A stretch of DNA of 64,000 bases from Dipteris shenzhenensis (Eukaryota): the NCBI GenBank assembly GCA_047967505.1, contig CM106538.1. One strand, given 5' to 3'. The position numbers and the translations under genes were made by a program. Shown here piece by piece: positions 1 through 53,935 of the stretch; within the stretch, counting starts at the first letter, position 1, and each line of letters starts with the position of its first letter. A model generated the notes under the pieces. The model worked only from the letters and a program-made list of their open reading frames with translations, had not been told where the DNA came from and searched no databases.

Positions 1-529
1 GTGGCTCTGGGGAAGCGCCACTAGCAGGCTCACAGTGAGGCCCCATTATGAAAGGATGCTGACTCAGCTGTGAGCTCTGGCAGTCAAACACCAGCGACAC
101 GGGGGGCACAGATTTCATTAGAAGCCTTCCCTGCCCAGTGGGCAGACTCCCCAGCGTTAACCGGGACGTGGGGAGGTCCTCTTAGGAGGGAAGATCGGGC
201 GAGGATGAGCGAGGGCGCAAGCTAGGAGGCCAGGACGGAGGAGGTTTCCTGGTGCTATTTGAAACTATGCCAATGGAACTTGCTATGTGTATCTTTAGGC
301 ATCACCTCTAGAGAAAGATCGAATAACTCCTCCCCTTTTGGAAACCGCACGTAAGCACCTCCAAACGCGCTCCCTATGGGGAGGCCTCTAGTTCAGATCC
401 CATCCTCACCTATGGGCCCCGCCTCCTACTATTCTTTCTTGTGCACTTGCGAATGTTATTGCTCTCCAACGCTAGTTCAAATCCCCTCCAAAGGAACAAC
501 CCATGGGATTTACAACAGAGTTGGAGGGG

Positions 530-1150
530 GGGATGGAGAGGGAACGGCTTGCCAAACAAGGGTAAGCCCTCACCAAATGGCTATTCTATCTGCAGCATAG
601 GCACTCCCTAGTAGACCTGAAACTACAAAGCATTGCCTGAAGACACCTCCAACCAAAGTCTCTAGAAGTACCTTCACTCGTAGGGTATATGGGTCATTTA
701 CGAGCAACCGCACCTCCAACTCTCCTTCGTCTGAGAGTACAGAGATTGCTATGGTTGGTGTCTCAGAGTATAGTGCCAAAATAGGCCCCAATAGAAGACA
801 AGGTGGATCTAACTTAGAAGCGCAGCGTAATGGGATACCTCGACATGTGATGTGTCGCCTCCATATCATCCCTTGTGAAACTGTGGTAACAAGGGATGAA
901 GAAAACCAAATGAGGTCCACGGTAAAACTGGGCTCTGCTCCACCAAGGCCTGAGTGATGTCCAAGGAGCTAAACTAGAGTAGAAAAACAAACTTCCCGTA
1001 GATGATGATGTCATGGGATCACCTTCCAAGCCTAAACTCGCCAAGACCCAACATCAAGTGGCGATAAGGGCAACAACTCGCCCCCAACTACTTGATCTTG
1101 AAGGGAGAGGATAGCTTTCTGCAACTATTGTTTGTCCTCGAGGGGAAGGA
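530..1150 (-). pseudogene. Probable decayed L1-type LINE ORF1 relic
   Basis: ORF 570..920(-) reads WRRHITCRGIPLRC...VRLLV...QCFVVSGL. A shifted frame then gives a broken zinc knuckle (ECLCCR*NSHLVRAYP). This is the layout of plant LINE ORF1 C-termini. It has stops and frameshifts, and the boundaries are approximate. Confidence 0.4.
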
Positions 1151-1465
1151 AGATCTAGATGGTTGAGTGTGTGAAGGGCATTGCCATGTGAGCCCATACA
1201 GCCACCAAAAAGGTCACCTTCTAGGTCACCACACCTTTGTCAAACAAAACCACCATCTACTAGCAAGAGAAAGAGGTGGGCAATGGAATTCCATGAAGAC
1301 ATGAATGTGGTTTGCACATCAGACAAGAAAAAGTTTGCTACTCTCTTCAAAGGATACTCGTGGCTGCAGGACAATCATCACAACCTTGAGAATTTTTTAA
1401 ACACGTGTGGTCCCCTTGGTTGCAGCCAGCTCATTGCTGTATCCACTTTCTCTGACTATTGAACG

Positions 1466-1726
1466 TCTCATGACATGCAATGCAATTTGAGACATACCCT
1501 CCCTCCTGCATTTGGAGAGATATTCAGGCTTTTCCATGTATATCTTTGCTCTTATGTCTCATGATATGCCATGCGACTTTGGGACATACCTCCCCCCTGC
1601 ATTTGGACAGGTATTTTAGAGTTTCCATGCATTATCAAACATGCCTCATGACATGCAAGGAACATTGGGACATGACCCTCCTGCATTTTGAAAGATATTC
1701 TGGCTTTTCAATGTATAGCTTTTGCC
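1466..1726. repeat. Three degenerate ~90-bp tandem copies directly downstream of the PPR stop codon
   Basis: CTCATGAYATGC...GACAT...CCTGCATTT-GA-AG-TATT...TTT-CATG recurs at ~1466, ~1557 and ~1645. Confidence 0.8.
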
Positions 1727-1756
1727 AACCACAAAACTATGCACAATCCTGTAAAC

Positions 1757-3529
1757 TTAAGTCTGACCTGCCCTGCCCTCTTCCATGATTGTTCTCATTG
1801 CCTCAACCTTCTTCTCATCCTCCTGCATCTGAGCATCTGCATAGATGTTAGCCATCAAGACATAAGCTGCATCATCCTTCCCATCCAATTGCACTGCATG
1901 TTGAAAGGCCCGTCTTCCAAGCTCAACATTACCCCACTGTCGACAAGCACCCAATACTGTATGCCAAACTGAAAGATTAGGTTGAAAAGGCATCTGCTCG
2001 ATCATAGCTACAGCTTCATCTAATTGGCCCACACGGCAAAGGAGATCAATCATGCAATTGTGATGCTCAATGGTTGGAGTGATTCCATAGTCTTGGCTCA
2101 TGGCCTCAAAATACTCCTGGGCTTTATCAACTAGACCAGCATGATTGCATACAGTAAGAATACTAAGGAATGTGATCCCATTTGGCCTTACACCTTCACC
2201 CTTCATTCTCTCAAGCATTTGGAAAACACTTTTACCTTCTCCTAGCTGGGCATATCCTGCAAACAGTGCATTCCATGAGACTACATCCGGAGAGAGACCC
2301 TCCAGTTGCATCTGTTGGAAACAGTCCAGCGCTTCCTGACCAAGCCCATGTTGGGCATACCCTGAGATTAGTGCAGTCCATGAGATGACATCTCTAACTG
2401 GAAGCTTGTCAAATACCTCCCTTGCTTTTGCAAGAGAGCCAGATTTGGCATACATGTCCACCAAAGTGTTGCCAACAGAAGTATGTCTCTCCCACCCCTT
2501 TCTGGAAATCTTAGCATGTATTTCTCGGCCTTTCTCTATAGCTCCCATGTTGCCACAGGCTTTCAAGCTACAAACAATTGTGACAGCATCTGGAGAGACC
2601 CCCTCCAGTTGCATCTGCTCAAAACAGTTCAGGGCTTCCTCCCCAAACCCATGTTCGGTATATCCTGCAATTAGTGCAGTCCACGAGACTGCATCTCGAA
2701 CTAGAAGCGTATCGAACACTTCCTGTGCCCTGCCAAGCCAGCCACATTTGGCATACATGTCAACTAAGGTGTTTCCAAGAAAAGGATCTCTTTCCAATCC
2801 CTTTCTCGCAATCTCTGCATGTGTCTCCTGACCACTTTCCGGATCCTTCAGCCTAGCACAAGCCTTCAGAAGGGCCACAAACGTATACTTGCTAGGAAGT
2901 ACACAAGCTTTCTTCATTTTCTTGTACAGGTTGAGAGCGTGATGTGAGTCCCCACATTCAATATAACCTGTTATGAGAGAAGTCCAAGTATACTCATTCG
3001 GACTAAGCAACTTGTCAAAAACCTGCAGCGCATTGTCCACGCTTCCACACTCCACCAGCATGGGGACAAGGTAATTCCCAAGAGATCTGTGAGCTTCCAG
3101 CCCACTTTTGCACATGTAGGCATGCAAGCGCTGGGCGGACGTTCGATTTTTCTCTTTTCTGCACTTCTGCAAGAGACAAACAAAGTTCTCAAGCGAAGGT
3201 AGCTGCGGCATACGTTCTAAAGACGTGAGTGATTCCTCTAAGCTTAGTTTCTCCCAGTTACTGTTCTCTCGCAATTCTTGTTCTTGCAATGAATTCAACT
3301 GTACTCTAGACCTGTCGCTAGCCTCGCAATTGCTGGCATATTCCAGCAAGCCACAGCTTTCTGAGTTGGACCGGATTTGATCAGTGGATGCTTGAGCCCG
3401 GTGCATTCCCTTGCTTCCGGACGACTCCTCCTTGAGGACGTCTTTAACCCAACCTGGATTGTACCAGCCTTCTATCCATAGGGACTCCTTGGTCATTTTA
3501 TGCTTGAAATCTGGAGACTTTGGGGTTGC
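1757..3529 (-). CDS. Terminal exon of a PLS-class PPR protein (12 PPR motifs L-S-P-L-S-P-L-S-P-P2-L2-S2, then E1 and E2, no DYW), preceded by the second half of a PDF motif; putative organellar RNA-editing/RNA-binding factor
   Basis: The 579-aa ORF has canonical motifs (LVDMYAKCG, VSWTALI.GY..HG, TFLSIL.VC.HAGLVD, HNCMIDLL.R.GQLDEA, WHTVLGACR..GNVELG, AAYVLMANIY). The frame stays open 33 nt upstream of ATG 3496 (ATPKSPDFKHK) to a TTTCACAG acceptor at 3530-3531, with a CTGAC branch-like site at ~3553-3557. Confidence 0.93.
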   Translation of the reverse strand, partial: ATPKSPDFKHKMTKESLWIEGWYNPGWVKDVLKEESSGSKGMHRAQASTDQIRSNSESCGLLEYASNCEASDRSRVQLNSLQEQELRENSNWEKLSLEESLTSLERMPQLPSLENFVCLLQKCRKEKNRTSAQRLHAYMCKSGLEAHRSLGNYLVPMLVECGSVDNALQVFDKLLSPNEYTWTSLITGYIECGDSHHALNLYKKMKKACVLPSKYTFVALLKACARLKDPESGQETHAEIARKGLERDPFLGNTLVDMYAKCGWLGRAQEVFDTLLVRDAVSWTALIAGYTEHGFGEEALNCFEQMQLEGVSPDAVTIVCSLKACGNMGAIEKGREIHAKISRKGWERHTSVGNTLVDMYAKSGSLAKAREVFDKLPVRDVISWTALISGYAQHGLGQEALDCFQQMQLEGLSPDVVSWNALFAGYAQLGEGKSVFQMLERMKGEGVRPNGITFLSILTVCNHAGLVDKAQEYFEAMSQDYGITPTIEHHNCMIDLLCRVGQLDEAVAMIEQMPFQPNLSVWHTVLGACRQWGNVELGRRAFQHAVQLDGKDDAAYVLMANIYADAQMQEDEKKVEAMRTIMEEGRAGQT

Positions 3530-3622
3530 CTGTGAAATATCATGATAGACTCGTCAGACAAGCCAGTACGTTCGAGTACATTTACGGTCTTACCTGTGTA
3601 AATCATTTTTCCACGCACTTAC

Positions 3623-3699
3623 TTTGCTCTTTCGATTGTCCCACCACTGGGAGGGATCCCTGAAGTACTCCTGCCATAAGCGCTCTGTCCTAGACCTAC
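3623..3699 (-). CDS. Internal 77-nt exon of the PPR gene encoding the first half of an OSB-type PDF motif ((G)RSRTERLWQEYFRDPSQWWDNRKSK)
   Basis: Flanked by a CTCCGCAG acceptor (AG at 3700-3701) and a GTAAGT donor (3617-3622). Splicing in phase 0 to 3529 restores WWDNRKSK-ATPKSPDFKHK-MTKESLW. Confidence 0.88.
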
Positions 3700-3814
3700 C
3701 TGCGGAGCATAACCACATGAAAACCCAATAGCAATTAATTTGAGACTAGATTCGTGTCATAGAGAAAGACCACAATGAAACCCAAGTGCAAGAATCTGAG
3801 ATTGACTTGGAGAC

Positions 3815-4064
3815 CTGAATTCGGACTTTTTGGGGTACTTCGTGTAGAACCACTGCCTATAGGAAACGTCGAGTCCTCTGTCACTATAGCTCCCATGCCT
3901 CCCTGGCTTCCCCCCCTTATGAGCTCTTGGGGGGAAGCCGTCGGGCTGGTCATGTCGACTTTGAACTTGAGCAGGAGCTCGCGGCCTTCAGGCAGGCCAT
4001 TGTGCTCTGGCGTCTGTACGCCAGCCTCAGAGCGGTTATACTGGCTCAATCTCACTTCCTCCAT
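3815..4064 (-). CDS. Probable first coding exon of the PDF-PPR gene (MEEVRLSQ...TPKSPNS); true start may lie further upstream
   Basis: This is the 5' part of ORF 3735..4064(-). A phase-1 CAG|GT donor at 3815/3814 matches the phase of the 77-nt exon, and the 115-nt intron is T-rich. Spliced total is 250+77+1773=2100 nt (699 aa + stop). The donor (GTCTCC) is weak. Confidence 0.6.
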
Positions 4065-5472
4065 TGGGAATGCGCTCTTATTTAAAGAAGGCCATTTTAC
4101 TTCCTAAAAACTAGGGAGACCTCCCAATTTCATGGTTGAGCGTTTGGGAATAGGGAAGCTTGTCGAGACTGTGGATCGGCCACATACTACACATGTCGCA
4201 CCAAAAAGAGTGTTGACAAGTGTCACCTAGGGATGGGGGCAAAGAAATCTTTTTGGGAGCTTTTTGTTGCGAGCTTTTTCGAGACGTCAACATGAGCAAA
4301 CATGCCACAGGCAATGGCTCAAACATACGTCAAAGTGGACCCTTCAATTTGGTCAAGGCAATCGGATCTGCGGCTAACCACGCTCAGTGGTTTGTGGAGG
4401 ATCGTGGCACACAATTGGTTGTCCGTGGCCAATCACTAGTCGCCAGCAGAGGACACATGGTCAGGTCAGCAACAACTGAGCAACCAGTTAGACTTGGCAG
4501 TTGTCGACGGACGCGTGGTGGGGCGTGAGGTCTCGCACACTTGGCCAGTCAATGGTATGAGGAGCCAATCAAACCGTCGCATCGCTCGACAAAGGATACA
4601 TGACAAATAGTGGATCAGGCATAACCTGATCAACCGACCGTCACTCAAGTTTGCGGGACACAACAGCAACCCAATTAGGTGGTGGCTCCAGATGTGGGGA
4701 CCGCTCCAATGCACACGGCCAATCACGGGATCGTCCTCGTTTATAGATGCGACAAATTGACAATACACATGGTCTGCCATTGGTGGCAACCATTGCATAA
4801 GTTACACCCACAATAGATCTCACGGCTAGCCCAAAAAGCATGAGCTCGAAGCCGAGTTCAAGCCATGTTGAACAGCCATTAGGAGGCCATGGCATAGTAC
4901 TGATCAATGATGACAATGATACAATAGCTACAATGGAGGGTCCTAGAGCAGTCATTGGCATGTTGTCATACATTAGGTCTTCTCAGGGATGTCATTGAGA
5001 CTGCTTCATCAAATGTTGCACAATTCAACCACAATGGAGAAGTTGATGGAAGTTTTGACAATGTATAATGGGAACATTGCATTCGAGCTGCACCCATGCC
5101 ACATGGAGTGAGTGTAATGGATGGAATGGAGCAAAAGTATGACAGCCATTACTGGATGAAACCAATGTCGACAACATTGACATTTGCTCGCAAAGCTTGT
5201 CGTAGTAGAGGTGTGTGGGGGAACTAGAGTGTACAAACCCCCTTTGCTCCAGTAGGTCGATTAATGGATTGCCAAACCACACTGCATGGATAGGTCAGCA
5301 CACCCATTGCTGAGAAATTGAGTTAAAGAATGATGACTATGTCTCTTTGATTGCACGTTATAATCTTCTCTCATCTGGTGTAAGAAAAATGAACAACAAG
5401 ATTCCGGCTATTGGAATGTCTACTACTAGATTAGGAACCTTGGCCTGTTTCTTTTGCAAAAGGTCCCCCATT

Positions 5473-5476
5473 CACA

Positions 5477-5517
<41 letters not shown>

Positions 5518-5526
5518 CTGTGTGTG

Positions 5527-5602
<76 letters not shown>

Positions 5603-5629
5603 GCTCGCTCCCTCCCTCCCTCCCTCCCT

Positions 5630-5690
<61 letters not shown>
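5473..5690. repeat. Compound microsatellite (CA)n-(TG)n-(CT)n-(CCCT)n-(CT)n
   Basis: Directly visible. The CA run (5473-5517) is followed by its reverse-complement TG run (5519-5558), then a ~130-nt almost pure pyrimidine tract. Confidence 0.98.
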
Positions 5691-13742: not shown

Positions 13743-16700
13743 TGTTAGATATCAATGCTCCACTCTCGTGTAGCTATGTGGAAACCAGCTAATTCTACTT
13801 GTAAGCCCCCCATATGAGGAGAAGGCATTTGAGTAGCTCGGTTATCCCGTAGGTCCTAGTTTGGACACCAGATGGGTGCCATGTGTGGCCTGATGGCTAG
13901 ACGGCTTTAGATAGAGTTGGCACATCGCCAACTAGGCTACATGCAAGTGCAAGAAGGCATCCCTTGACTAACCGCATTGAGGGTAGATGGAGCATTTCCC
14001 GGGGCAGCCCACTCTCGCGTTGCGGGGTTCGTTTGGAGCCTCAGATGATCCCGAATGGCTCTGGGTTGAACAGAGACAATAGGTTAGTTGCTCTATTTTG
14101 TGCACTGGTTCTATCGTATGGTCGGTGGCCTATTTCGGGACCGAGATCGTTTTGGGCAGACTGGGTCAGTCACCCAATTGAGCCTAATCGACTACGACTG
14201 GTGGCTATATGAGAGCAAGCCCATGAAGCCCATTTCATCACTAGCTACAGCAACCCTGATTCCTTAGCATCCAGCCTCCATCTTCTACTATTTCCAGCAT
14301 GCCATCGAAGCTTCTTTCATAGGAGTGCACGGTTGGGAGGCAGCGCCATCTATTGTATCAGTTCTACAGTAATCAAATTTTTGATTCTCCATACTATCTT
14401 GTTTTCTTTCTTGCATATGAGATCATGTTATCTGTTGAGCACTGACATTGTATTATTTTCTTACATGGTATCAGAGCCTGGACTCTAGCAAGAAGATTTG
14501 GTAGTGTGTTTCTGTTTGTGAGCAGATTGTGAGAGATGGCCCAGCCCGCAAGATTGCGAATCCCACCGTTTGGCGAAAGCGAAAAGTTGGATGGCTCTAA
14601 CTATCCACTCTGGAAGTTCAAGATGAAGACCATCCTAAGTGCATATGAGCTTTAAGACACTGCTACTGGGGTGGACATGAGGCCAGTTGCGAGGCCAGAT
14701 CTAGCCAATGCTCGACAACAGATAGTACCAACTGCAGATGAGATTCTTGCATGGACAAGAAGAAATGCAGATGTGTTGTGTTCTATAGTCTGCAGTGTTA
14801 GTGATTCCATCATGGCGTTAATTCAACATGTCACCACAGCGGAGGAGGCATGGACAGTCTTGAAAAATCAGTACGAGACCACAAATCAAATGCGAATTCA
14901 AAATATGGAGACTCAAATCATTTACGAGAAGTTGTTTGAGTCGGAAGCAGCAGAGTTGTTCATCACCAGGGTAAAGAATCTGCGCGATCAGATGACTACG
15001 ATTGGCATCACCATCACCAGTGAGAATCTAGCACGAAGGTGCATACGAATTCTCCCACCAAATTACGACGGTCTTATTATATATGGCTCCATAATGAAGA
15101 ACAACGCTTGGGACCTTGTGGATCGACCACCAAAATGCAAGGTAATCGGAACCAAGTGGGTGTACAAGACCAAGTACAAGTCCGACGGCATGTTGGATAA
15201 GTACAAGGCTCGGCTCATGGCAAAAGGATTTGCACAGGTACATGGTTTTGATTATCAAGATACTTTTGCTCCCACAACTCGACTAACCACAATTCGCAGT
15301 GTTTTGGCTTTAGCTGCCCAGGGAAGTTGGCCCGCATTTCAGATGGATGTGAAATCCGCCTTTCTGAATGGAGATCTCAAGGAGGAGGTATATGTGGAAC
15401 AACCACTAGGTTTTGAGATCCCCGGTTCAAAAGGTAAAGTCTACAAACTAAAGAAGGCACTTTACGAGCTGAAACAGGCCCCACGAGCATGGTACCAGCG
15501 AATTGATGCCTACTTTCTACAAAATGGGTTTAGGAGGAGCCCATTTGATGCAAATTTGTATATCTTCAGAGAAGGAGGCAAGTGTATGATCGTGGTCCTT
15601 TATGTGGACAACCTTGTCATAACAGGGGACCATGAAGAGAAGATCTCACAAACGAAGCATTTGCTAGGAAGAGAGTTTGAAATGACAGACCTCAGACTAA
15701 TGCATTTCTGTTTGGGGATTGAAGTTTGGCAGGAGCCAAAACAGATCTTCATTTCACAGCTGAAGTATGCTGGAGAGATATTGAAGGCATTTGGCATGGC
15801 TAAGTGCAAGACAATTGGTACCCCTATGGAGGTTGATGCGAAGCTCTCAAACGAGGATTCATCACCACTGGTGGATGAAGCGAAGTACAAAAGGCTTGTG
15901 GGCAGCTTGATTTACCTGTACAACACATGGCCAGACATCAATTTTGCAACTGGTGTACTAAGCAGGTTTTCCAATATGCCCCGGAAGAACCATTGGAGGG
16001 CAGGGATGTGGGTGCTAAAATACATCAAAGGCACACTTGATTATGGCATCACCTATACCAAGGGCAACATCTTGACCGAATTTTGTGACTCGGATTGGGC
16101 AGGAGATGTGGACAGTAGGAGATCAGTGACAAGGTACTGTTTCTCACTTGGATCTGGAGTTGTGTCATGGGTCAGCAAGAAGCAACCCACAGTTTCTCTT
16201 TCTTCTACCGAGGCTGAGTACAAATTTGCATGCTTTGCTTCTTGTGAGGCAGTGTGGTTGAGGAGGATTTTGGGGGACATGGGTGAAGTGCAGAACAAGC
16301 CTACGTAGTTATCATGTGACAATCAGAGTTGCATGGTGATTGCAAAGAACCCGGTGTTCCACGCTCGCACAAAACACATTGAGATTCAATATCACTTTGT
16401 ACGTGAGCTCATCATGGATGGAGAGGTCGACTTGGTGTACTGTTCGACTACAGAGAATGCTGTGGACATCTTCACGAAGGCTCTTGGAAGAGACTTGCTG
16501 GAGAGGCATCTTCATCGACTTGGCATTGGGCTGAAAAAGTAAGTTCACTTGCGGGTGGACATTGAGGGGGGTTGTTAGATATCAATGCTCCACTCTCGTG
16601 TAACTATGCAAGAACCAACTAGCTCTACTTGTAAGCCCCCCACATGAGGAGAAGGTATTTGAGTAGCTCAGTTATCCGGTAGGTTTGGACACCAGATGGG

Positions 16701-36689: not shown

Positions 36690-39600
36690 CTATCCAATGC
36701 CCATCAATACACGACAATACTCAAACCGCTGACTAGGTAGACTCTTCGTCAGCATATCTGCAGGGTTATCATCTGTATGAACCTTGACAAGCTCTATGCG
36801 CTTGTCCTCAAGTACCTCCCTGATGAAATGGTACCTGACCTCAATGTGTTTGGTCTTTGCATGAAAGACCAGATTCTGTGCTAGCTGAATAGCACTCATG
36901 GAATCACTATGCAATGTCGGTACACCTGTATGAATCCGCAAATCCTCAGGGGGGTCACTATGTATAAACCCTCTATACCACGTGCGTTCAAGGCCTATTT
37001 CTAAAATCCCTTATCTGTAAATTTTTCATTTAATAAAATGTACCCCTTTTCTATACAAATCTGTAAATTTTTTCCAAAACTATTTTAAATAGTCCCTTAT
37101 GTATATTTATTTCTGTAAATTTTAGAAGTAAAAAATATCCTTCTGTTGAACTCACGTGATAGGATTACATATGATGAGTGACCCCCCCGAGCGCAAATCT
37201 CCCACTAGCCGATCAAGCCATATAGCCTCGTTGCAACCCTTTGTGGCTGCAACATACTCAGCCTCTGTGGTAGACAAAGCAATGCACTTCTGTGCACGAG
37301 ACATCCATGACACTGCACCACCTGCAAAGGTGAACACATAACCAGAAGTGGATCTCCTACTATCCACATGCCCTGCATAGTCTGAATCTGTGTACCCAAG
37401 TACATGCATGTCTCCTTTACCAAAGCAAATGCACATCTCCTTGGTACCCTTCATGTACCTCATGATGCACTTAACTGCCTCCCAATGCCTCTTTCCTGGA
37501 TTAGCCATATACCGGCTAACAACTCCCACTGCAAATGCAATGTCTGGTCTAGTAGCTATCATAGCATACATAAGACTCCCAACTGCTGATGCATAAGGAA
37601 CCTTGGCCATCATGGCCCTCTCCTCATCTGATTTGGGACTATCTGTATGACTCAGTTTCACATATGGAGGCAATGGAGTACTCACTACCTTCCCCCCCTC
37701 CATATTGAAACGCTATAATACTTTTGTAACATACTCTTTTTGTGAAAGCCAAAGGAGTTTCCTACTCTGATCACGCGTGATGTGCATACCAAGAATATGA
37801 CCTGCAAGTCCCAAATCCTTCATATCAAAGGCCTCATGCAACTTGGCCTTTAAAGCATCTAGCTCATAAGTATTCTTGCTAGCCAATAGCATATCATCCA
37901 CATATAGTGCTAAGATTATCAGGCTATTATCCTTAGCTCTTTTAGTGTAGAGGCAGTGATCAATTTCACTCCTTCTAAAACCTTGGGACCGAATGAAAGC
38001 ATCAAACTTCTGATACCATTCTCTAGGTGCTTGCTTAAGACCATAGAGACTCTTCTTCAGTTTGCAAATTAAATGCTCTTTGCCCTTTTCTTCAAATCCT
38101 TCCGGCTGCACCATGTAAATTTCCTCATGCAAATCCCCATGCAAGAAAGCTGTTTTGACATCCATTTGCATAAGCTCCATATCCTCTGATGCCACTAGTC
38201 CAAGCATGCATCTAAGTGTGGTCATCTTCACAACCGGAGAGAATATCTCATCAAAGTCCACACCCTTCTCTTGCTTGAACCCTTTAGCAACCAAACGGGC
38301 CTTGTACCAAGGCACATCATCACCTGTGACCTTCATTTTGTAGACCCATTTACATGGCAATGCTTTCTTTCCATGTGGCAAAGAAACCAAGTCCCAAGTC
38401 TTATTCTTCATAAGTGAACTCATCTCTGATTGCATAGCATACTCCCACTTGCATTGATCCTCACGCATCATAGCCTCTTTGTAGCAAGAAGGCTCCCCGC
38501 AATCAGTAAGCATCACATAGTCTACCCCTGGAACAAACCTATCAAGCGGTCTAGACACTCTAGATGATCTTCTCAATGGCATTTCAGCTTGCTTTCCCAC
38601 CTGCATATCAGCCACATTTGGCTCATCATTTCCACCAATAGATGATCCATCATCTACCCTTGATTGTATATTTGTGGGAGTACTTGGTGGTACCATTTCT
38701 TGCACATTTGGTGCATGGACAGCTTGCTGTCTATCAACATATGCAGGTGGATTCACATCCTGGAAAGTGATTCTCCTCATTTCCACATCCCTCATGGGTG
38801 CCTTATGCATCTTCTTCTCATTGAAGACCACATCATGGCTGCGTATGATATTCTTTGTTTCTAGATCCCAGAGACGATAGCCCATCTCTCCACTTTCACC
38901 ATAACCCAGAAAGATGCATTTCCTAGACTTAGGATCTAGCTTCTTTCGAAGCTCTTTTGGCACATGTGCATATGCCTCACACCCAAATATGTGCAAATGA
39001 GAGTAAGAGGGCTTCTTGCCACTCCATGCGTCTTCAGGAATACCACCATCCAAACTCTTACTAGGTGATCTATTGATCACATGCACTACAGTCTTCATTG
39101 CCTCAGCCCAAAAACCACCAGAAAGGCTTGCATTGGAAAGCATGCATTGCAACCTTTCTTGAATGGTACGATTCATCTTTTCTGCAACTGGATTTTGCTC
39201 TGGAGTACGAGGGGATGTAAGCTCCCTCTTAATCCCACGAGTATCACAGAAATGCTGAAAGTCATGAGAGAGACACTCTCCACCATTGTCAGTCCGTAGG
39301 CATTTAAGCGTTCTACCTGAGTGATTCTCCAGCCATTTCTGAAATACCTGGAACACATCACTCTTCCGAGCTATAGCATAAGCCCACACTTTCCTAGTTG
39401 CATCATCAATGAATGTCACATAGTATTCAGCCCCGCCTAATGACCGTGTAGGCATGGGACCACATACGTCTGAATGCACCAAATCAAGCATTTCAAACTC
39501 TTTCTTTCCCCTTCTTTTATGGGCTGATTTAGTCTGCTTCCCATAGAGACAGTGCTCACAAAATTCGAAATCAGAGAAACTCAAATGCGGTACATAACCC

Positions 39601-41000
39601 AAACGGCATAAGAGTTTCATTCCATTCTGGCTCATGTGCCCCAACCTGCAATGCCACAAAGAAGTGCTTGGCTGCTCGGTTATTGCAACAACATGATCAA
39701 ATACCCCTGATACATGTAAGGGATACAAAGTCCCACACTTGGCACCCCTGGCCAAAAGCATAGAGCCCTTCTGAATTTTCCAACTCTGAAAGCCAAAAGT
39801 GGTGTGAAAACGAGCATCATCTAGCTGACCCACTGAAAGAAGACTCTTGGTCAGCTTAGGCACATGTCTCACATGTTTCAAAACAAATGCAGACCCATTT
39901 GCAAAAGAAAACTTTATGTCACCTGCTCCCACTATGTCACATGCATAGTCATTTCCAAGATGCACACAACCTGTCTTTCCACTGTCATAAGTGGAGAACC
40001 ATTCCCTATGGGGAGTAACATGGAATGAAGCACCAGAATCCAAAATCCAATCCTGGGAATATGCATCATCTAAAGTGGTAAGCAACTCTGCAGATAAACT
40101 AGACATGAAGAGAACATCATTGTCACTATCACGTGTGACTGCATTGATCTCCTCGATCTTCACTTTTCCTTTGTCCTCCCTTGGACTCTCTTCCTTTTGA
40201 TTTGCACCCCAATTTGCATTCTTTTTCTTATCCTTTTGCTCTCTTTTCAGCTTGTAGCAATCCTTTTTCATATTGCCCTTCTTGCCACAGTGGTAACACT
40301 CAATGTTCCGTGCCCTGGATTTGCTATGAGACTTCCCTCTTTCTTGGGACTTCCCCCTAAACTGTGATCTGCCCCTTTGCACATTTAAGGCTGCATCCTG
40401 CTTGTTGCCATCCATAGACTTCCGTCTAATCTCCTCAACCAACAAGCTACCCATAACATCATCAAATTTCAGTACTCCACCAAGTGCAGAGTTACTGACA
40501 GCTATACGGAAGGTATCCCATGAGGATGGCAATGAACATAAGAGAAATATTGCCTTAGTCTCCGCATCAAAATTCATTTTCTGAGCCTGAAGCTGGCTAA
40601 AAATAATATTGAATTCATTCAAGTGAGAAGCAATGGAGACCCCTTCCTTCATCTGCAGCTCAAACAACCTCTTCATGAGGTAAACTTTATTAGAGGCAGT
40701 TTCCTTCTCATAAGTGGCACACAGTTTCTTCCACAAATCTTCCGTAGTCTGCTCATTTACTACTGTGAAATAAACTGACTCTGCAAGATGAAGTCTAATA
40801 GTAGACTTTGCTAATGCATCCAACTCATTCCAATCATCCTCAGACATATTTGCAGGCTTAGCTTCAATCCCTGCCAAGGGTTTAATCTGCTTCTTTTGAA
40901 TAAGCACATCCCTTATCTATTCTTTCCACAAAGAAAAGTTTGTCCCATCAAACTTTTTAATGCTGAAAAACTCCTTTTCAGACATGGAAGAGGATGCCAT
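36690..41000 (-). pseudogene. gag-pol polyprotein of copia B; two in-frame TAG stops (~40917, 37713) and a MITE insertion in RNase H
   Basis: Starts MASSSMSEKEFFSIKKFDGTNFSLWK. The 1064-aa ORF has a knuckle-like CYHCGKKGNMKKDC, WILDSGASFH, VHSDVCGP and LYVDDML. RH motifs YTDSDYAG and FHAKTKHIEVRYHFIRE follow. Confidence 0.93.
36945..37191. mobile_element. 247-bp MITE with 15-bp TIRs and 8-bp TSD (hAT-type)
   Basis: TIRs CTCAGGGGGGTCACT / AGTGACCCCCCCGAG (1 mismatch). TSD CGCAAATC at 36937-36944 and 37192-37199. The paralogous B copy at ~6590 shows the empty site. Confidence 0.92.
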
Positions 41001-45178: not shown

Positions 45179-48100
45179 TGTTGAGATATCGAGCTCCACT
45201 CGGGATATGCCAGGGTGACCGTTGTGTATTTATGTCACCGACTTGTTAGCTGGAGATGCGGTTGGTACACCGCCCACGAATAATAGCTGGATGACAGCTA
45301 TCCTTATCTACTCTAGTTTGTGGCTCAGTTAGTATGCCACCTTAGTTAGTTGAGTTTGGTTTGAGACCCACATATAGGGTTCTTCTATTTCTTTGTACGA
45401 GAGTTCTTTTGGCTTACACAACTAAGAAGAGGAAAACTGTTTTCAACCTCCACCTTTGTGTACTCTCCCATTGTGCATGTGAGAAAGCCGCAAGTGAGTC
45501 TCCTTCCCTCTCTCCCACTATCTTCACATGGTATCAGAGCCTTGTTCGTGGTAAGGAGCTCAAGAAAGCAAGCCAAGTTCGTGGTGTCCTGGTAAGAGGA
45601 CCAGTGTTGCTTTCCTATTTCGAGTTTGGGAGCAAATCTCTGCAGGTAGCACAGCCAGAAGTGCAAGAGTGCACTGTTTCAGATTGAGACGCCCTTCGCG
45701 GTGTGGCGAGAGCGTAGTATATGCTGCGGGCAAGGGCGAAGCCCTTAGTGACTTTATTTTTCTGATTTGAGGCCATTTCGGGGCTCGTTTTGAAGGTGGA
45801 AGTTCTTCGTAGGCACTCAGAAAAAGGCCCTGTTTTTGGCTGTGCAACCACTGCGCGGCTAGTCGGTGGAAAGTTGTCACAGAAATTGCATCGTATGCCT
45901 GTGTGCAGAGATATTGGGAGTTGCAGATTCATGCTTGTTGCCTGTTGATGCAAAATTGTCACTAGGAAGTGATTGTGTGGTGAAATACCACTTTCGTCAG
46001 TTTTGTAGATCTGCCCGTGTGAGGCAAAAGCTGTGTTTTTTGCAGTGACAGAATATTTTGCAGTGTTCTGTAATGGCATCTGATTCTCTTTCACAGATTG
46101 TCACTGAAAAGCTTGACAAGAACAACTTCCAGGCATGGAAGTTTAGAATGACGAATTTCTTGATGGGAAAAGGCTATTGGGAATTCATTACAGGAAATGA
46201 AGAAGAACCTGTTCTTCCTAATGTTCCCAGTCAACAGGAAATGCAGGCATTCAAAGGATGGCATGAGAGAGCCAGGAAAGTTATGTACTGGCTGTCTATC
46301 AGTATTTCGGACTCCATGATTGTGCATATTCAGGATGCAAATACGCTAAAGGAGGCATGGGATACTTTGGCAAAAATGTACAGCACAAATACGCAAGCCA
46401 GGAAAATGCAACTCAAACAGGAGTTGCACAATGTGCAGAGAGAAAATTTGAGCATAAATGACTACCACATGAAAGTGAAGAAAATTGCAGATGCACTTGC
46501 TTCCATTGGGTCGCCAGTGGATGATGACGATTTGGTCTCTGTGACCTTGAATGGTCTAGGAAAGGATTATGCACAGTTCCGGACATCCATTGCCGTCCGT
46601 GAAAAATTTCCTGATTTTGAGGAGTTGATTGCTCTTCTAGAGGCAGGGGGAGCCAAAGAGGCCGTGGTGGATGGCAGAGAAGCCAAAATGCAAACAGCAA
46701 TGTTGAATGCTACTATTGTGGCAAAACGGGTCATATGGCTAAGGACTGCTACAAAAAGCAGGATGACATTATGAATGGAAAATTGCAGCAAGGCAATTAT
46801 GCATCTTCTAGCAGGCAGGGTGATGATAGAAATGAGCATCTATTTATGGTGCAGCATATGACCAATTCTGTGACAAGTGCAGAAGAACAAAATGATGTGT
46901 GGTATGTTGACTCAGGTGCGTCAAACCACATGACAGGTCATGCAGAATGGATGCAAGATACAAGGAAAATGGAGAAACCAGGATTTCTGGAGACTGGTGA
47001 CGATACTACACATCCTATTGTGCAGATTGGCGAAATTCCTTTGTCTATGCAGGATGGGAAAAAGAAATACTTGTCTGATGTATTTCATGTCCCGAACATC
47101 ACCAAGAACCTGGTTTCTATTGGTCAGATGGTTGAGCAGGGCTTGCAGGTCAGATTTAATCCTCATGGATGCTTTGTTGAGGATATGAAAAATAATGGTC
47201 GCTTGATAGCAAAAGGAAAGAAGAAGGGCAGGATGTTTACGTTGGATGCGGACATGCCTGAATTGAGTGCAGCAATGTTTGCACATGGGACCGGTGTAGT
47301 TGCAGATATTGATATCTGGCACAAACGCATTGGTCATGTTAATATACAGCGACTTAAATCAATGCAAGCCCAAAATATTGTTGCAGGATTTCCAAAATTC
47401 AAGGTTGCAGAAATGCACAAGGTTTGTGAAGCCTGTCAATTTGGGAAACAGGCAAGGAAACCTTTTCCTAGGCATGTTCAAGAGAGTAAAAAGCCATTGG
47501 AATTAATCCACTCTGATGTGTGGACTACAAAAGCTACATCTATTGGAGGCTGTCACTATTTTGTCACATTTATTGATGACTTCAGCAGAAAACTGTGGGT
47601 GTATTTTATGAAAAAGAAAAGTGAAGTGTTTGGGCACGTCAAAGCTTTCAAAGCTATGGTTGAAAAAGAAACAGGCCTGCAAATAAAATGCCTAAGGTCA
47701 CATGGAGGGAGAGAGTACCTCTCAAATGAGTTTGCAAGGTTCTTGCAGGAGCATGGCATAAAGCAGCAATATTCATGCAGTCATACCCCACAGCAAAATG
47801 GAATTGCAGAAAGAAAAAACAGGCATATTGGAGAGGTATCTCGGGCTATGCTAAATGAAAAAGATCTACCAGATTATTATTGGGCTGAAGCAGTTGCTAC
47901 AGCAGTCTATATAATGAATAGGACTCCCACTGCAGCAATACATGGCATGATGCCAGAGGAGATGTATACTGGTAGGAAACCAGATATTTCTCATTTGAAG
48001 ATTTTTGGTTGCATTGCCTATGTCCATGTGCCAGATGAGTTGAGGTCCAAGTTGGATCCAAAAGCTGAGAAGTGCGTCTTTATTGGTTATTCTCTGCAGC

Positions 48101-50838
48101 AGAAAGGGTATAGATGCTATAACCCTTCTACACGTAAGTTCACAGTGAGTAGAGATGTTGTTTTTGATGAGATGAGCAGCTGGTATAAACCAGTAAATGT
48201 GATGATTGATGTAGATGCACAAAATGGTAATGCTGCATAGAATGCACAGTAGCAATCACAAAATATCAGTGGACCTGGAGTGTCCTCTACCAGTGGTTCA
48301 CATACTTCGCCATGGACAGGCAGATTGAGATCAGGAGAATCCCCTCAAAGCAATGAAGAGAGTGGTACGCAGGTATCACGAAAAGGAAAAGAGAAGGTAG
48401 ATCAGCCCATGTATGATGTGAATGCAGGTCACTCTTGTGTGGATGGTGAATCCAGTGGCTCAGAACAGAGCATTGATGATGAGTCGGGTATTCCTTCTGT
48501 TGTTACACCTGGAGTAAGGAAGACCAGGGATGTTTTGAGAGCACCTGGAAGTGAGCCTATTTTGCGCAGGTCTACCAGGGTTAGGTATCCTGTGGATAGG
48601 CTGAAATATGATGGATTTACAGCCATTCACTATGCCTATATGGTCAAAGTGATACAGGAACCAGAACCCACTTCTTTTGAGCAAGCCATGGGTGGTTCAC
48701 ATACTTTGCCATGGACAGGAAGATTGAGATCAGGAGGATCTCCTCAAAGCAATTCAAATAGTGGTATGCAAGTATCACAAAAAGGAAAAGAGAAAGTAGA
48801 TCAGCCCATGTTTGATGTGAATGCACGTCACTCTTATGTGGATGGTGAATCCAGTGGCTCAAAACAGAGCCTTGATGATGAGTTGGGTATTCCTTCTATT
48901 GTTACACCTAGAGTAAGGAAGACAAGGGATGTTTTGAGAGCACCTCGTAGTGATCCTATTTTGCGCAGGTCTACCAGAGTTAAGTAGGATAAGCCATGGA
49001 TGAAGAAATGGATGCCTTGGATGCTAATGCTACATGGGAATTGGTGCCTTTGCCTAAAGGCAAGAATGCAATTGGTTGTAAGTGGGTTTATAAGATCAAG
49101 CACAATGCAGATGGTTCTGTGAATAGATACAAGGCAAGATTAGTTGTCAAGGGGTATGCACAGACATATGGCATTGATTATGAAGAAACTTTCAGCCCGG
49201 TTGCAAGGATGGCAACCGTAAGAGCAGCCATTGCTATGGCTGCATCAAAGGGATGGTCTTTACATCAGATGGATGTAAAGAATGCCTTCTGGCATGGTGA
49301 TTTGCAAGAAGAGGTCTTTATGGAGCAACTAGCAGGTTATGTTCATGCTATTCATCCCGAGTTTGTTTGCAGGTTGAAGAAAGCCTTGTATGGCTTGAAG
49401 CAAGCACCTAGAGCATGGTCTGACAAGATAGGGCAGTATCTTGTCACTACTGGCTTTCAGATTTCCAAGGCAGATTTCTCACTCTATGTGAGAAAAACAG
49501 AGAAAGGGATTATGCTGCTGGTCATTTATGTTGATGATTTGATTATCACAGGTGATAGTGATGAAGATATCCTTCATGTGAAAATGCTATTGAGGCAGAA
49601 GTTTGAGATGAAGGATTTGGGAGAGCTGCGTTATTTCTTGGGCATTGAGGTGATTAGATCACCAAGTGGGATACAGCTCTTGCAGAGGCAGTATGGATTG
49701 GACATGCTGTCCAAATATGGGATGATAGGCTATAAGCCTATTTCAGTTCCTTTGGAGCAGAATGTGAAGCTGAGCGCAGATGCAGGTGAGCTTCTGGAAG
49801 ACCCTACTATGTACAGACGCATAGTAGGAAGTTTGATTTACATGACTATTACTAGGCCAGATTTGAGCTATGCTGTTGGGTTGGTAAGTCAGTTTATGCA
49901 GGCTCCAAGGAAACCGCATTTGGATGCGGCTAGACGCATACTCAGGTATGTGAAGTCCACATTGCAGTATGGACTATTTTATGAGGCTGGAGTTCAGATA
50001 CAGTTGCATGGATACACTGATGCTGATTGGGCTGGTAGTATTTCTGATAGACGATCTACTAGTGGGTATGTGTTCTCTTTTGGGAGTGCTGCAGTTACTT
50101 GGAGCAGCAAGAAACAGCCTACAGTTGCCTTGTCGAGCATAGAGGCTGAGTACAGGGGTGCAGCAATGGCTGCATGTGAGGTAGCTTGGTTGCATAAGCT
50201 ACTCTATGATATGCATCAGTCTACAGATGGGCCAGTTGTCATTTATTGTGACAACATGAGCAGCATACACTTGGCAAAGAACCCAGTCTTTCATGCTAGA
50301 ACAAAGCACATTGAGGTGCATTATCACTATGTGCGGGAGAAGGTTTTACTAGGTCTTATTGATCTAGTTTATGTCAGCACAGAGGATCAGGTAGCTGACA
50401 TATTCACGAAAGCATTGGGCGCAGAGAAGCTGCGCAAGTTCAGAGACCTGCTTGGTGTGCAGGAATTGGGATTATGCTCCAGGGGGAGTGTTGAGATATC
50501 GAGCTCCACTCGCGATATGCCAGGGTGACCGTTGTGTATTTATGTCACCGACTTGTTAGCTGGAGATGCGGTTGGTACACCGCCCACGAATAATAGCTGG
50601 ATGACAGCTATCCTTATCTACTCTAGTTTGTGGCTCAGTTAGTATGCCACCTTAGTTAGTTGAGTTTGGTTTGAGACCCACATATAGGGTTCTTCTATTT
50701 CTTTGTACGAGAGTTCTTTTGGCTTACACAACTAAGAAGAGGAAAACTATTTTCAGCCTCCACCTTTGTGTACTCTCCCATTGTGCATGTGAGAAAGCCG
50801 CAAGCGAGTCTCCTTCCCTCTCTCCCACTATCTTCACA
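45179..50838 (+). mobile_element. Full-length Ty1/copia family A element (copy A1, youngest); 350-bp LTRs 45179-45528 and 50489-50838; TSD ATCTA
   Basis: LTRs differ at ~4 positions by eye. PBS TGGTATCAGAGC at 45529, PPT AGGGGGAG at 50481, and ATCTA at 45174-45178 and 50839-50843. Confidence 0.97.
46073..50528 (+). pseudogene. gag-pol of copia A1 with a 190-bp gag deletion, stops near 48240 and an internal ~290-bp duplication; RT-RH ORF 48996-50528 open
   Basis: Same motifs as A2. Lesions were identified by comparison with A2. Confidence 0.92.
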
Positions 50839-51950: not shown

Positions 51951-53935
51951 TTGTGGGAAACTTCTCCTATCCTTGCCAATAATGCCCTCATCGATAGTAG
52001 CAAGACCTCCTCTCCTGTGCTGGCATTCAGCTGCTCGATCTCCCTTTCAATAACCTCACCGGTAGCCTTCCTCACGATTTCTTCTCCAATTGTGGCAGTC
52101 TCCAGATGCTTAATCTCTCGGACTAATCACTTGGCTGGCTCCTTGCCATCTGGAATCGGTCAGCATTAATCCCTTCAAACATTAAATTGGGCGTAGAGGT
52201 AGAAGGAGGAACAGATTAGAAGCTGGTAGTGGAGATGCCTTTGGTTGTAAAGGAGTGTTGTCAGCTCTTTGTATGGCAACAAGGAACCAAACGATGGAGG
52301 TACAAAAAACGGCTCCACTCTTCAAGCTTTGTTATGGAAAAGGCCACCATTGCTGTAATGGAAGGCGAGGGGAAGGCAACAAAATGGAGGGGGGGAAGCA
52401 AGAATGCCACGCAAGTGATTCTTGAACTGGCAGTGAAGAAGGAGGTTGAGTGAAGCTAAGCTGGTGGGAAGCTTGCGAGGAGGAGGAGGAGGAAGCTTGA
52501 AGAACCCGAAGGAGCGAAGCAAGCAAAGAAGGATGAAGATAAATCTCAAGGACGAATTAGACGCTGGCAACGAGTAAGAGGAGTGGAAAGAAAGCTGAAG
52601 CTATTTGGGAACACAAATTCAAGAGGGCATGGACATCCTCTATAGACATGAGACGTGCATGCCCATCCGTGACCCTGCCAATTGCTAGGATGTTGCTAGC
52701 TAGCGTTTCTTCATGGAAAAACTTTGTCCACATCGTGGACCATCTGACCAGCTCGTTTCCCCCGCCATCGATCATGAGAAATCCCTTGTCACCCCTTGGT
52801 CACGAGGGAGGGTGCACCACTTGATTTTAATGTTATCTTGGTGGAGTCTTGGTGCCCAAGGCTACAAGTGATGGTCATTTCCTTCCTAAATTGCTTTCTG
52901 CTCAACCGAACGTGAGTAGCCTAAGAGGAGAGACAATTAAGAATGTATTCCAATACCTTTCCAACAACTAGTATTCTGTGTGAGAGATGGCCTCCCCCAA
53001 AGCCTTCTAGGCGCTATTTCTCTATCAGGCAACCCTTCTAGACAAGTTCATTGTAGAACCAGACCTAGAGAAGCAGGAGAAATCAAGCTACAAGGAGGAC
53101 GACATGCTTCGAAATTGGGTGTGCAACATGCAGCAGGCAAAGAGGGTTATCGTTTTTCCGGTTACATTGATGCAACTATGAGGCTTATAACATATGTTTT
53201 TGTGTAGGACATGGCATACACTTACTGGAAACAACTCGTTCAGCGTAGCGAATGTTGGCATCTAATAGCAGGATACAACCTTCTGACAGACCTAGACGTA
53301 CCATAGAACTGAGAGACCTTTACACCAAGCAATTACATGACATTTCACTATTGCTTATTAGATAAGGCCCCGTTTGAAATGGGACCACATCTGAAACCCA
53401 ATGAATTACTGTCTACTGTGTAGATTGGGTTACTATGACTAATGCCTTCGTTCTTATAAGCACCGACCGACTTCGAGATCCTACCACCAATGTTTATTTG
53501 TTGCACAAAGAACCATTAAACGTAAGGAGGACCTCGCGACTTTGAGACTACCAATCATTTGAAAGACAATAGACCTTCACAAAGACCCAAAACACTCGAG
53601 CAATAGAATGCATCAAGAAGGAGTTCATGTTATGCATGCATTCTTTGCTCTCGACAGGAAATCATGAGCGGCGAACTACTATGCTATGCACATCACACTT
53701 CTCTCCTTCTGCGATCATCAACCACGGTCGGAAGGAGCCTCCTCACACTCTCCTTTGCAAATGAGTGATACCTTCTCGCCAAGTATCCCTAGTTGCATAC
53801 TGTGACAATTTGCACCTCCTTGTGCTTCTGAATTTGACGGGCTCCTAAGGTTCAAACATGATCATCCTGACCATTGGCACCCAACATTCGGGTCGATTGA
53901 TTGTTGCCATGATCTTTGAGTACATTGTTTGCACC

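Follow-up and report, generated by a model that had tools for sequence, protein, structure and literature searches.

We identified, on the minus strand of a 64,000-nt stretch of Dipteris shenzhenensis DNA (contig CM106538.1; hereafter referred to as the window), a gene whose predicted protein is, as judged from alignments and profile matches, a member of a large family of PLS-class PPR proteins with one to three N-terminal PDF motifs. To our knowledge, the PDF motif had until now been seen only in organelle DNA-maintenance proteins. The initial annotation had presented the locus as a singular hidden fusion, but it proved to belong to a large family whose members public proteomes list as 'hypothetical protein'. 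Its further statement that this architecture is not a described class held, as no description of a PDF motif on any PPR protein was found in the freely accessible literature searched. We thus report as new a large family of PDF-PLS-PPR fusions for which no published description was found.

The sequence holds an intact nuclear gene of three exons, and its exon model is backed by a spliced contig from a sequencing run tentatively classed as RNA (Table 1). The two GT-AG introns and three in-frame exons proposed initially were confirmed on the minus strand, where exons 4064-3815, 3699-3623, and 3529-1757 have a combined length of 2100 nt, that is, 699 codons plus the stop. One 773-letter contig of run X1 (record 7) bridges both introns, aligning at 4113-3813 (301 letters) and 3528-3145 (384 letters) with 76 letters between, which is the number expected with exon 2 because two letters are ambiguous at the first joint and one falls at the second. 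Skipping of the 77-nt exon was not borne out by this spacing; its inclusion was judged from the letter count alone, and the RNA nature of both runs (X1 and X2) is tentative. The leader is reached to 4113 by the same contig and to 4138 by X2 record 15, while X1 record 1 and X2 record 8 span 1385-1848 and 1402-1848, respectively; the run contigs give no cover at 4141-5400 or over most of 181-1260. As had been claimed, the plain ORF (1757-3553) misses the motif, since it begins within intron 2, mid-motif. A one-intron model starting from an in-frame ATG at ~3718, within intron 1, was rejected because, in the contig, exon 1 continues at 3699, and an antisense ORF (2340-2831) was considered artefactual, arising from a coding strand rich in repeats. 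Copia retrotransposon debris surrounds the gene. The acidic, S/T-rich product of exon 1 had no Pfam match and no Atlas match ≥0.9, and its alignment with homologues is confined to the last ~12 residues. Seven of its first 40 residues are acidic, unlike a typical transit peptide, so this copy cannot safely be assumed to reside in an organelle.

Table 1. Features of the PDF-PPR gene, in window positions
Feature	Position	Strand	Details
5' leader	4065-4138	(-)	two short uORFs with start codons (ATG) at 4133 and 4095
Exon 1, coding part	3815-4064	(-)	residues 1-84; last codon split G/GT
Intron 1	3700-3814	(-)	115 nt, GTCTCC...CCGCAG, phase 1; crossed by X1 contig record 7
Exon 2	3623-3699	(-)	77 nt; first PDF half, residues 87-109 at 3691-3623
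Intron 2	3530-3622	(-)	93 nt, GTAAGT...TTCACAG, phase 0; between K109 and A110, inside PDF motif
PDF motif, second half	3428-3529	(-)	residues 110-143, ATPKSPDFKHK...NPGWVKDVLKE
Linker	3185-3427	(-)	residues 144-224, poorly conserved; degenerate P-like cap ~190-224
Twelve PLS-class PPR motifs	1967-3184	(-)	residues 225-630; Pfam PPR families and motif map
E1	1865-1966	(-)	residues 631-664, 34 aa
E2	1760-1864	(-)	residues 665-699, 35 aa; last six residues diverged (GRAGQT)
Stop codon TAA	1757-1759	(-)	
3' UTR	1385-1756	(-)	decayed, frame-broken E+/DYW relics; under X1 record 1 and X2 record 8

Splicing restores an uninterrupted PDF motif exactly as claimed (junction ...WWDNRKSK/ATPKSPDFKHK...), and its OSB-type identity was substantiated by profile comparison. 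Against a PDF profile derived solely from OSB-like proteins that bear an SSB domain, residues 87-143 scored 74.3 bits without gaps, compared with 33-35 bits for each half alone; on a profile of PDFs linked to PPR tracts, the score was 89.9 bits. All 15 invariant or near-invariant PDF positions are kept. A gapless match of this strength, obtained only when the halves are joined, is more than chance. Conservation within the protein is also highest in the PDF segment (mean identity across 49 homologues, 64.6%; PPR tract, 37.3%; linker residues 144-206, 18.3%). In an Atlas structure search, the PDF region of the PDF-PPR protein P0164 resembled the cluster 'protein OSB1, mitochondrial-like' (TM 0.65) and was also linked to three PPR/DYW clusters. 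The Atlas search additionally hinted at phage relatives, but a PHROGs scan of six PDF-bearing proteins gave no credible match, leaving this hint without sequence backing. Neither the PDF half nor the PDF profile matched PDB sequences better than E 0.69, indicating that no solved PDF structure exists there. Residues 9-120 of the ORF (half-motif plus linker) likewise found nothing in a set of 5.8 billion proteins (0 of 52 candidates reached E 0.01), because half a motif is too short. The Pfam copy scanned contains no model for the motif. Since, in addition, an intron splits the motif in some genes, ORF- or domain-based pipelines can miss it.

We then compared the window protein with PDF-bearing proteins in public data. 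In one lycophyte proteome search, 92 of 96 candidates matched, and 90 of these 92 rows were PDF+PLS-PPR proteins of Diphasiastrum complanatum. Thirteen PDF+PPR proteins occurred among the best 150 PDF representatives (all 10 scanned were PLS PPRs), and the motif was carried by 4 of the best 120 PPR matches. On metagenome-derived plant contigs, a PDF was followed by a PPR tract on the same strand in 75 of 80 loci, and an SSB domain was found in none of the 80. An annotation chimera was considered and dropped, because PDF, PPR, and E lay on one uninterrupted genomic ORF in all five cases tested, three of them also with DYW. Among the 104 PDF+PPR proteins examined, each with one to three tandem PDFs, all PDFs lay N-terminal to the PPR tract in 103. 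A canonical DYW deaminase was present in 34 and absent in 70, and of the 34, 33 end in the letters DYW and 33 have CxxCH.

The window protein fits this family in layout, with its PDF (residues 87-143) N-terminal to a PPR tract starting at residue 225, and it aligned end to end with PDF-PPR members at 41-44% identity. In the PDF tree, 45 of 50 PPR-linked PDFs fell in one group (7 label changes vs. 44 in shuffles). The window PDF grouped with them, sister to P0241 and the fern protein P0356 (SH-aLRT 96). The intron position pointed the same way: the site of window intron 3622-3530 is common to nine distinct related genes, represented by 15 of 80 loci whose phase-0 intron directly follows the K codon and precedes the P of PDF by 15 nt. 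Fifty of the 80 loci are intronless at this site, and 12 gave no call.

Downstream of the linker, the motif map and Pfam bore out the claimed 12 PLS PPR motifs plus E1/E2. After a degenerate P-like cap, the order is L-S-P-L-S-P-L-S-P-P2-L2-S2 followed by E1 and E2; P motifs measure 35 aa, L motifs 35-36 aa, and S motifs 31-32 aa. The Pfam models PPR, PPR_1, PPR_2, and PPR_3 matched at E 1e-34 to 1e-60, and E_motif reached 41.9 bits (cut-off 27.3; profile positions 2-48 of 63). With tandem P/L/S triplets and C-terminal E1 and E2, the protein has the hallmarks of an E-subclass PLS PPR. One P motif runs directly into P2, the L-S pair being missing at this junction. The ORF gave no Pfam DYW_deaminase match and lacks the HxE/CxxCH signature of a DYW domain. 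However, the region after the stop carries relics arranged in DYW-domain order, namely VHSFVV (1756-1727), ..QMQEgGyv.. copies (~1720-1480), and KNSQGCDDCPAATSIL (1400-1350), whose individual matches are weak (E 0.07-0.2). The ..QMQEgGyv.. segment was read by eye as three degenerate copies; Tandem Repeats Finder did not report these DYW-start relics. The 2.1-kb ORF is open, while the ~400 nt downstream are interrupted by several stops and frame breaks. From these remnants, this copy is best described as derived by truncation from a DYW-type gene, its deaminase lost and decayed relics left behind.

The PDF-PPR proteins can be set beside four known systems. The window protein shares with OSB proteins the same ~50-aa PDF motif with all conserved positions, but it has no SSB/OB-fold (no Pfam SSB match in three reading frames scanned), whereas 8 of 10 OSB-like representatives have an SSB domain (PF00436, E ≤0.01; three above the cut-off). 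Moreover, the PDF is C-terminal in OSB but N-terminal in the window protein, where its partner is a PPR RNA reader, and the PDFs linked to PPR tracts form a cluster away from most of those in OSB proteins. Like PLS E/DYW editing factors, the window protein has P/L/S motifs followed by P2-L2-S2-E1-E2, and in some members of the family a canonical DYW domain forms the C-terminus; what differs is the N-terminal PDF and, for the window copy, the secondary loss of DYW. PPR-SMR proteins, the RRM-bearing PPR4, and PRORP are P-class PPR proteins with C-terminal enzyme modules or an RRM. They likewise fuse a PPR tract to a second nucleic-acid-handling module, but in PDF-PPR proteins this module is an ssDNA-binding-type motif on PLS-class, editing-type proteins. 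Finally, MORF/RIP proteins are helpers of seed-plant editosomes that act in trans through a fold unrelated to PDF, and MORF proteins are, as far as we know, confined to seed plants. A PDF might be analogous to them in role, as an accessory improving RNA binding by PLS PPR tracts, with the difference that it lies in cis and was found in lycophyte and fern proteins.

Taken jointly, these data lead us to a reading that we consider somewhat probable, namely that in the product of this intact PDF-PLS-E gene, which has lost DYW, the PDF serves as a sequence-independent single-strand grip. The PPR tract would read a specific organellar RNA stretch, as other PLS editing factors do. Because the DYW domain is gone, the deaminase would have to come in trans. 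This agrees with the initial annotation for the present copy, which has no deaminase domain, but not for the family as such, which is not trans-only given that 34 of 104 members carry DYW. The sequence-independent nucleic-acid grip attributed to the PDF is modelled on the ssDNA-binding role of OSB proteins. PPR proteins are oriented on RNA with the N-terminus towards the footprint's 5' end, which would place the PDF upstream of the PPR footprint on RNA. There it may act on the RNA itself, or else on nearby ssDNA, and it could increase affinity or on-rate, or hold the target in single-stranded form. Without DYW, with a diverged E2 tail and with P running into P2, this copy may be a weakened member of the family.

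The activity reported for OSB proteins offers a different role. According to three reports, the ~50-aa PDF motif accounts for the ability of OSB proteins to bind ssDNA (PMC6963530, PMC4166229, PMC6451138), and it is described as sufficient for this in AtOSB1 (PMC6963530, PMC6451138). Recombinant AtOSB1 and AtOSB2 are likewise described as preferring ssDNA over dsDNA or RNA (PMC4166229), so an RNA-side role of the PDF is not the obvious default. Given these properties, the PDF could, as the initial annotation chiefly proposed beside R-loops and an accessory clamp, bind organellar ssDNA and tether the PPR factor to nucleoids engaged in transcription or replication, making editing-site recognition co-transcriptional, and the window motif with its 15 of 15 conserved positions and 74 bits on the OSB-only profile would suit that task. 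We nevertheless consider a tether rather unlikely, as the separate clustering of 45 of 50 PPR-linked PDFs suggests that binding specificity may have shifted, and the long unconserved linker fits a floppy accessory grip equally well. A PDF used for protein contact (recruitment of an OSB-type protein or a trans deaminase, or self-association), for import, or for regulation, rather than as a nucleic-acid grip, would suit the 70 of 104 members that have no deaminase and would depend on a partner, as well as the occurrence of one to three tandem PDFs. A PDF also lies N-terminal to a kinesin motor in P0171, marking it as a portable module in varied contexts. We give this explanation very little credence, however, because the motif is also kept in the 34 DYW-bearing members that need no partner, and the sole tested activity in the available text of the reports is ssDNA binding (PMC6963530, PMC4166229, PMC6451138).

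The relics raise the alternative that the gene is a transcribed but dead or dying paralogue of a very large family, its PDF kept only through short time. The loss of DYW to mere relics, the diverged E2 tail, the P-P2 junction without an L-S pair, the odd acidic exon 1 without relatives, and the copia debris around the gene would all be expected of such a copy. We judge it improbable, since 699 codons stay open, in contrast to the several stops and frame breaks in the ~400 nt downstream, the 15 key PDF positions have all been retained, and both introns are removed in a contig (run presumed RNA). Moreover, DYW is likewise absent from 70 of 104 family members, as is common for E-type PPR factors. 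For the family as a whole, we also entertain, as a possibility that falls well short of probable, that PDF-PPR proteins form an old, large, undescribed class of organellar RNA-editing factors in lycophytes, ferns, and at least one further metagenome plant source, in which the PDF either couples editing to the ssDNA and nascent RNA of transcribing nucleoids or does the MORF/RIP job in cis.

Ferns and lycophytes have far more organellar edited sites than seed plants, and we know of no MORF/RIP helpers in them. How their PLS proteins gain enough affinity and specificity is a question on which the PDF bears, as a conserved, portable single-strand-binding module at the 5'-facing end of ~100 such factors. 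It might also offer an accessory affinity module for the design of synthetic PPR editors. A 2026 survey of OSB evolution credits lycophytes and ferns with only one or two OSB genes and, in the portion of its text available, leaves PPR unmentioned (PMC13393729), so most PDF motifs of these plants may be uncounted. In run X1, the bins of the PDF exons had a summed word depth of ~1070-1210, compared with 21.9 for the gene's own contig, and in X2, 14 contigs diverge at 3440. Word depth and diverging contigs, which imply no copy number, hint that other transcripts share the motif.

A search of 5.8 billion proteins with the full PPR ORF matched PLS PPRs from ferns and lycophytes, none above 47% identity; WWDNR...PDFKHK stood near the N-terminus in 4 of the 120 matches listed, all four of them Diphasiastrum complanatum "hypothetical proteins". 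In the Pfam copy scanned, the window frames had no match over the PDF motif, and complete PDF-bearing proteins matched SSB, PPR or other families only; because this copy holds no model for the motif, we built our own profiles from database proteins. Profile A1, made from 64-aa segments of the four D. complanatum proteins, detected 1061 proteins at E ≤ 0.001 (405 at E ≤ 1e-10) among 1.84 billion representatives. Within the best 150 of these 1061, 13 carried PPR downstream of one, two or three PDFs, and the other 137 had no PPR match, most carrying at least two PDFs (maximum 13). An SSB domain was detected at E ≤ 0.01 in 8 of 10 non-PPR representatives scanned (3 exceeding the Pfam cut-off) and lay N-terminal to the PDFs in seven of the eight, SSB then PDFs being the OSB layout described in passages of PMC6963530, PMC4166229 and PMC6451138. 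A profile built exclusively from the PDFs of seven SSB-bearing proteins scored 74.3 bits on residues 87-143 of the window protein, gapless at the junction, and 33-35 bits on each unspliced PDF half. The window PDF also retained 15 of 15 invariant or near-invariant positions in a 29-sequence alignment, so that comparison with OSB motifs bears out the initial annotation's PDF call. In the ESM Atlas, residues 1-100 of P0164, a PDF-PPR protein, matched three PPR/DYW clusters structurally as well as one named "protein OSB1, mitochondrial-like" (TM 0.65), and the aligned part bears the Pfam 38.1 label PF30937. After these, the PDF region came closest in structure to tailed-phage (Uroviricota) hypothetical proteins of 187-277 aa in the Atlas (TM 0.33-0.49), one cluster of which is likewise labelled PF30937; when six PDF-bearing proteins were scanned against PHROGs, no link to phage appeared at the sequence level.

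The PDF-PPR fusion is a family, not a one-off. PDF and PPR were combined in 104 of the 357 proteins compiled, with one PDF in 75, two in 22 and three in 7, and every PDF lay N-terminal to the first PPR match in all except one, which looks like two genes fused within one model. A DYW domain was present in 34 of the 104 and absent from 70; 33 of the 34 end in DYW and have CxxCH. When residues 28-95 of the database protein P0015 were searched among proteins 575-1833 aa long, 92 of 96 candidates matched. Of these 92 rows, 90 were D. complanatum PPR proteins (fewer than 90 distinct loci, because several locus tags recur), and the remaining two were one Adiantum capillus-veneris and one JGI protein. 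An A1 scan of metagenome contigs matched at least 596 stretches; among the matches listed, 332 were confirmed and 80 plant loci kept. Among these listed matches, a same-strand PPR followed just past the PDF in 75 of the 80, the remaining five contigs stopping within ~450 nt of the PDF, and no SSB domain was found in the 80. All five long single ORFs from those contigs read PDF, PPR and E, three with DYW, and the fusion is therefore independent of gene models and splicing. The metagenome loci shared 32-37% identity with the window protein in long alignments over the PDF and PPR tract. Many family members, including the Diphasiastrum proteins P0312, P0315, P0307 and P0097, carry, ~30-60 residues ahead of the intact motif, a degenerate remnant (..ALWINNRFNPxWV..) that resembles a second PDF half, which suggests that a former tandem PDF has decayed; in the fern protein P0023 the sole PDF is degenerate (E 3e-4). 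Two further architectures, a kinesin motor domain preceded by three PDFs (P0171, 1526 aa) and 13 PDFs, 12 of them ahead of a weak SSB match (P0121, 1160 aa), may be real or may be fused gene models.

At the window locus, minus-strand reading and joining of exons by coordinates agree with the three-exon model of the initial annotation, yielding 2100 nt (699 codons and a stop). As had been claimed, the motif escapes an ORF-based view, because ORF 1757-3553 in the stop-to-stop list opens inside intron 2, eight codons ahead of ATPKSPDFKHK, and the first PDF half sits in its own 51-aa frame. Window positions 1-5400 were compared with contigs of two sequencing runs, X1 and X2, both putatively RNA. 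X1 contig record 7 (773 letters, depth 21.9) places letters 13-313 on 4113-3813 and letters 390-773 on 3528-3145. The 76 letters between are the count predicted for inclusion of the 77-nt exon 2, because intron 1 opens with the same GT that begins this exon (-2) and base 3529 adds one (+1). By placement and letter count the record therefore spans both introns, anchored by 301 letters on one side and 384 on the other, and fits the proposed junctions and exon inclusion in a run guessed to be RNA. Further contigs extend over the stop and through the 3' UTR as far as 1385 in X1 and 1402 in X2, and an X2 contig covers the leader, which contains two short upstream ORFs, up to 4138.

Coordinates of the gene model and of the relics past its stop
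Feature	Position	Strand	Details
Exon 1	4064-3815	minus	opens with ATG; sequence read 4400-1500, exons joined by coordinates
Intron 1	3814-3700	minus	GTCTCC...CCGCAG
Exon 2	3699-3623	minus	77 nt
Intron 2	3622-3530	minus	GTAAGT...TTCACAG; 93 nt, phase 0
Exon 3	3529-1757	minus	closes with TAA
VHSFVV relic	1756-1727	minus	E+/DYW order
Three degenerate tandem copies, ~90 nt, of DYW-domain start (..I..L..QMQEgGyvP....HE..)	1480-1720	minus	3' UTR frames
KNSQGCDDCPAATSIL relic	1400-1350	minus	opposite KNLRICGDCHTATKFIS of a family member; weak match

The site of intron 2 is shared. In the 80 metagenome loci kept among the matches listed, the distance from the K codon ending WWDxRxxK to the P codon of PDF was 15 nt, hence intronless, in 50; 15 had a 123-234-nt insert with AAG/GTAA right after K and ..AG 15 nt before P, 3 had a 9-nt in-frame insert, and 12 fit none of the patterns used. 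The 15 intron-bearing loci (L045-L079) among these listed matches represent nine distinct sequences, their inserts contain in-frame stops, and the window's intron occupies the same phase-0 site. The lengths of the window's intron and of the nine distinct ones (93, 123, 135, 138, 141, 141, 141, 150, 159 and 234) are all divisible by three, which may be a selection effect because tblastn ranking of loci may favour in-frame inserts.

Mean identity to 49 homologues with one alignment spanning PDF and PPR tract was 64.6% for the PDF, 18.3% for the linker and 37.3% for the PPR-E part. In a quickly built tree from 187 PDF segments, poorly resolved because it has 63 columns, 45 of the 50 PPR-linked PDFs grouped together (SH-aLRT 85), with 7 changes of the PPR label versus 44 in shuffles, and the window PDF was sister to the family member P0241 plus the Adiantum protein (SH-aLRT 96). 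This tree omits non-PPR representatives ranked below P0200, takes at most two PDFs per non-PPR protein and includes only 25 randomly drawn proteins from the PPR-ORF and P0015-segment searches.

Downstream of the PDF, the motif map gives a degenerate P-like cap and then L-S-P-L-S-P-L-S-P-P2-L2-S2 (residues 225-630), E1 (631-664) and E2 (665-699); Pfam matched PPR families and E_motif (41.9 bits) on the PPR ORF. One P motif adjoins P2 directly, which is taken to indicate that repeats have been lost. The reading frame closes after E2, whose final six residues have diverged, and beyond the stop lie stop-broken pieces in other frames, ordered as in the E+/DYW domain, the single matches being weak (E 0.07-0.2); Tandem Repeats Finder gave no report of the three DYW-start copies. 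We interpret these pieces as traces of a DYW deaminase that was lost secondarily.

The architecture, its conservation and the DYW loss in the window copy are matters of observation. As to role, the window protein would most likely be a PLS-E factor that recognises sites in organellar RNA and relies on a deaminase supplied in trans, while its N-terminal PDF would help to hold single-stranded nucleic acid, whatever its sequence, on the 5' side of the footprint. The chief competing reading is that the PDF tethers the protein to nucleoids, as the initial annotation proposed, and the preference of OSB1 and OSB2 for ssDNA over RNA, reported in a passage of PMC4166229, speaks for it. That the locus is a decaying copy is a weakened reading, because the 699-codon ORF is intact beside the shattered relic. 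Exon 1 is acidic (7 of its first 40 residues) with no relatives found in the Pfam scan or Atlas search, which makes organellar targeting of the window copy less than certain.

The PDF-PPR architecture is real and widespread, and no description of it was found in print. In the open-access main texts searched, no paper linked the PDF motif to PPR proteins; five papers there use the term "PDF motif", three of them about OSBs. A survey from 2026 that covers 182 OSB genes of 59 species (PMC13393729) assigns one or two OSB copies to lycophytes and ferns and contains neither "PPR" nor "pentatricopeptide". Databases may already display the combination, because the motif is evidently covered by a family in Pfam 38.1.

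Within the window, a 163-aa open frame at 2340-2831 on the plus strand, antisense to the PPR repeats, was taken as a by-product of repeat composition, not a gene. Elsewhere (6000-58000), 10 of 10 long ORFs scanned were pieces of Ty1/copia-type LTR retrotransposons (gag, integrase, RVT_2) that occur several times and in both orientations (e.g., 14656-16308, 37713-40916, 46621-50528 and 53849-57849). Adjacent microsatellites at 5473-5690, comprising (CA)22, (TG)20 and ~32 copies of CTCT, lie ~1.3 kb upstream of the leader.
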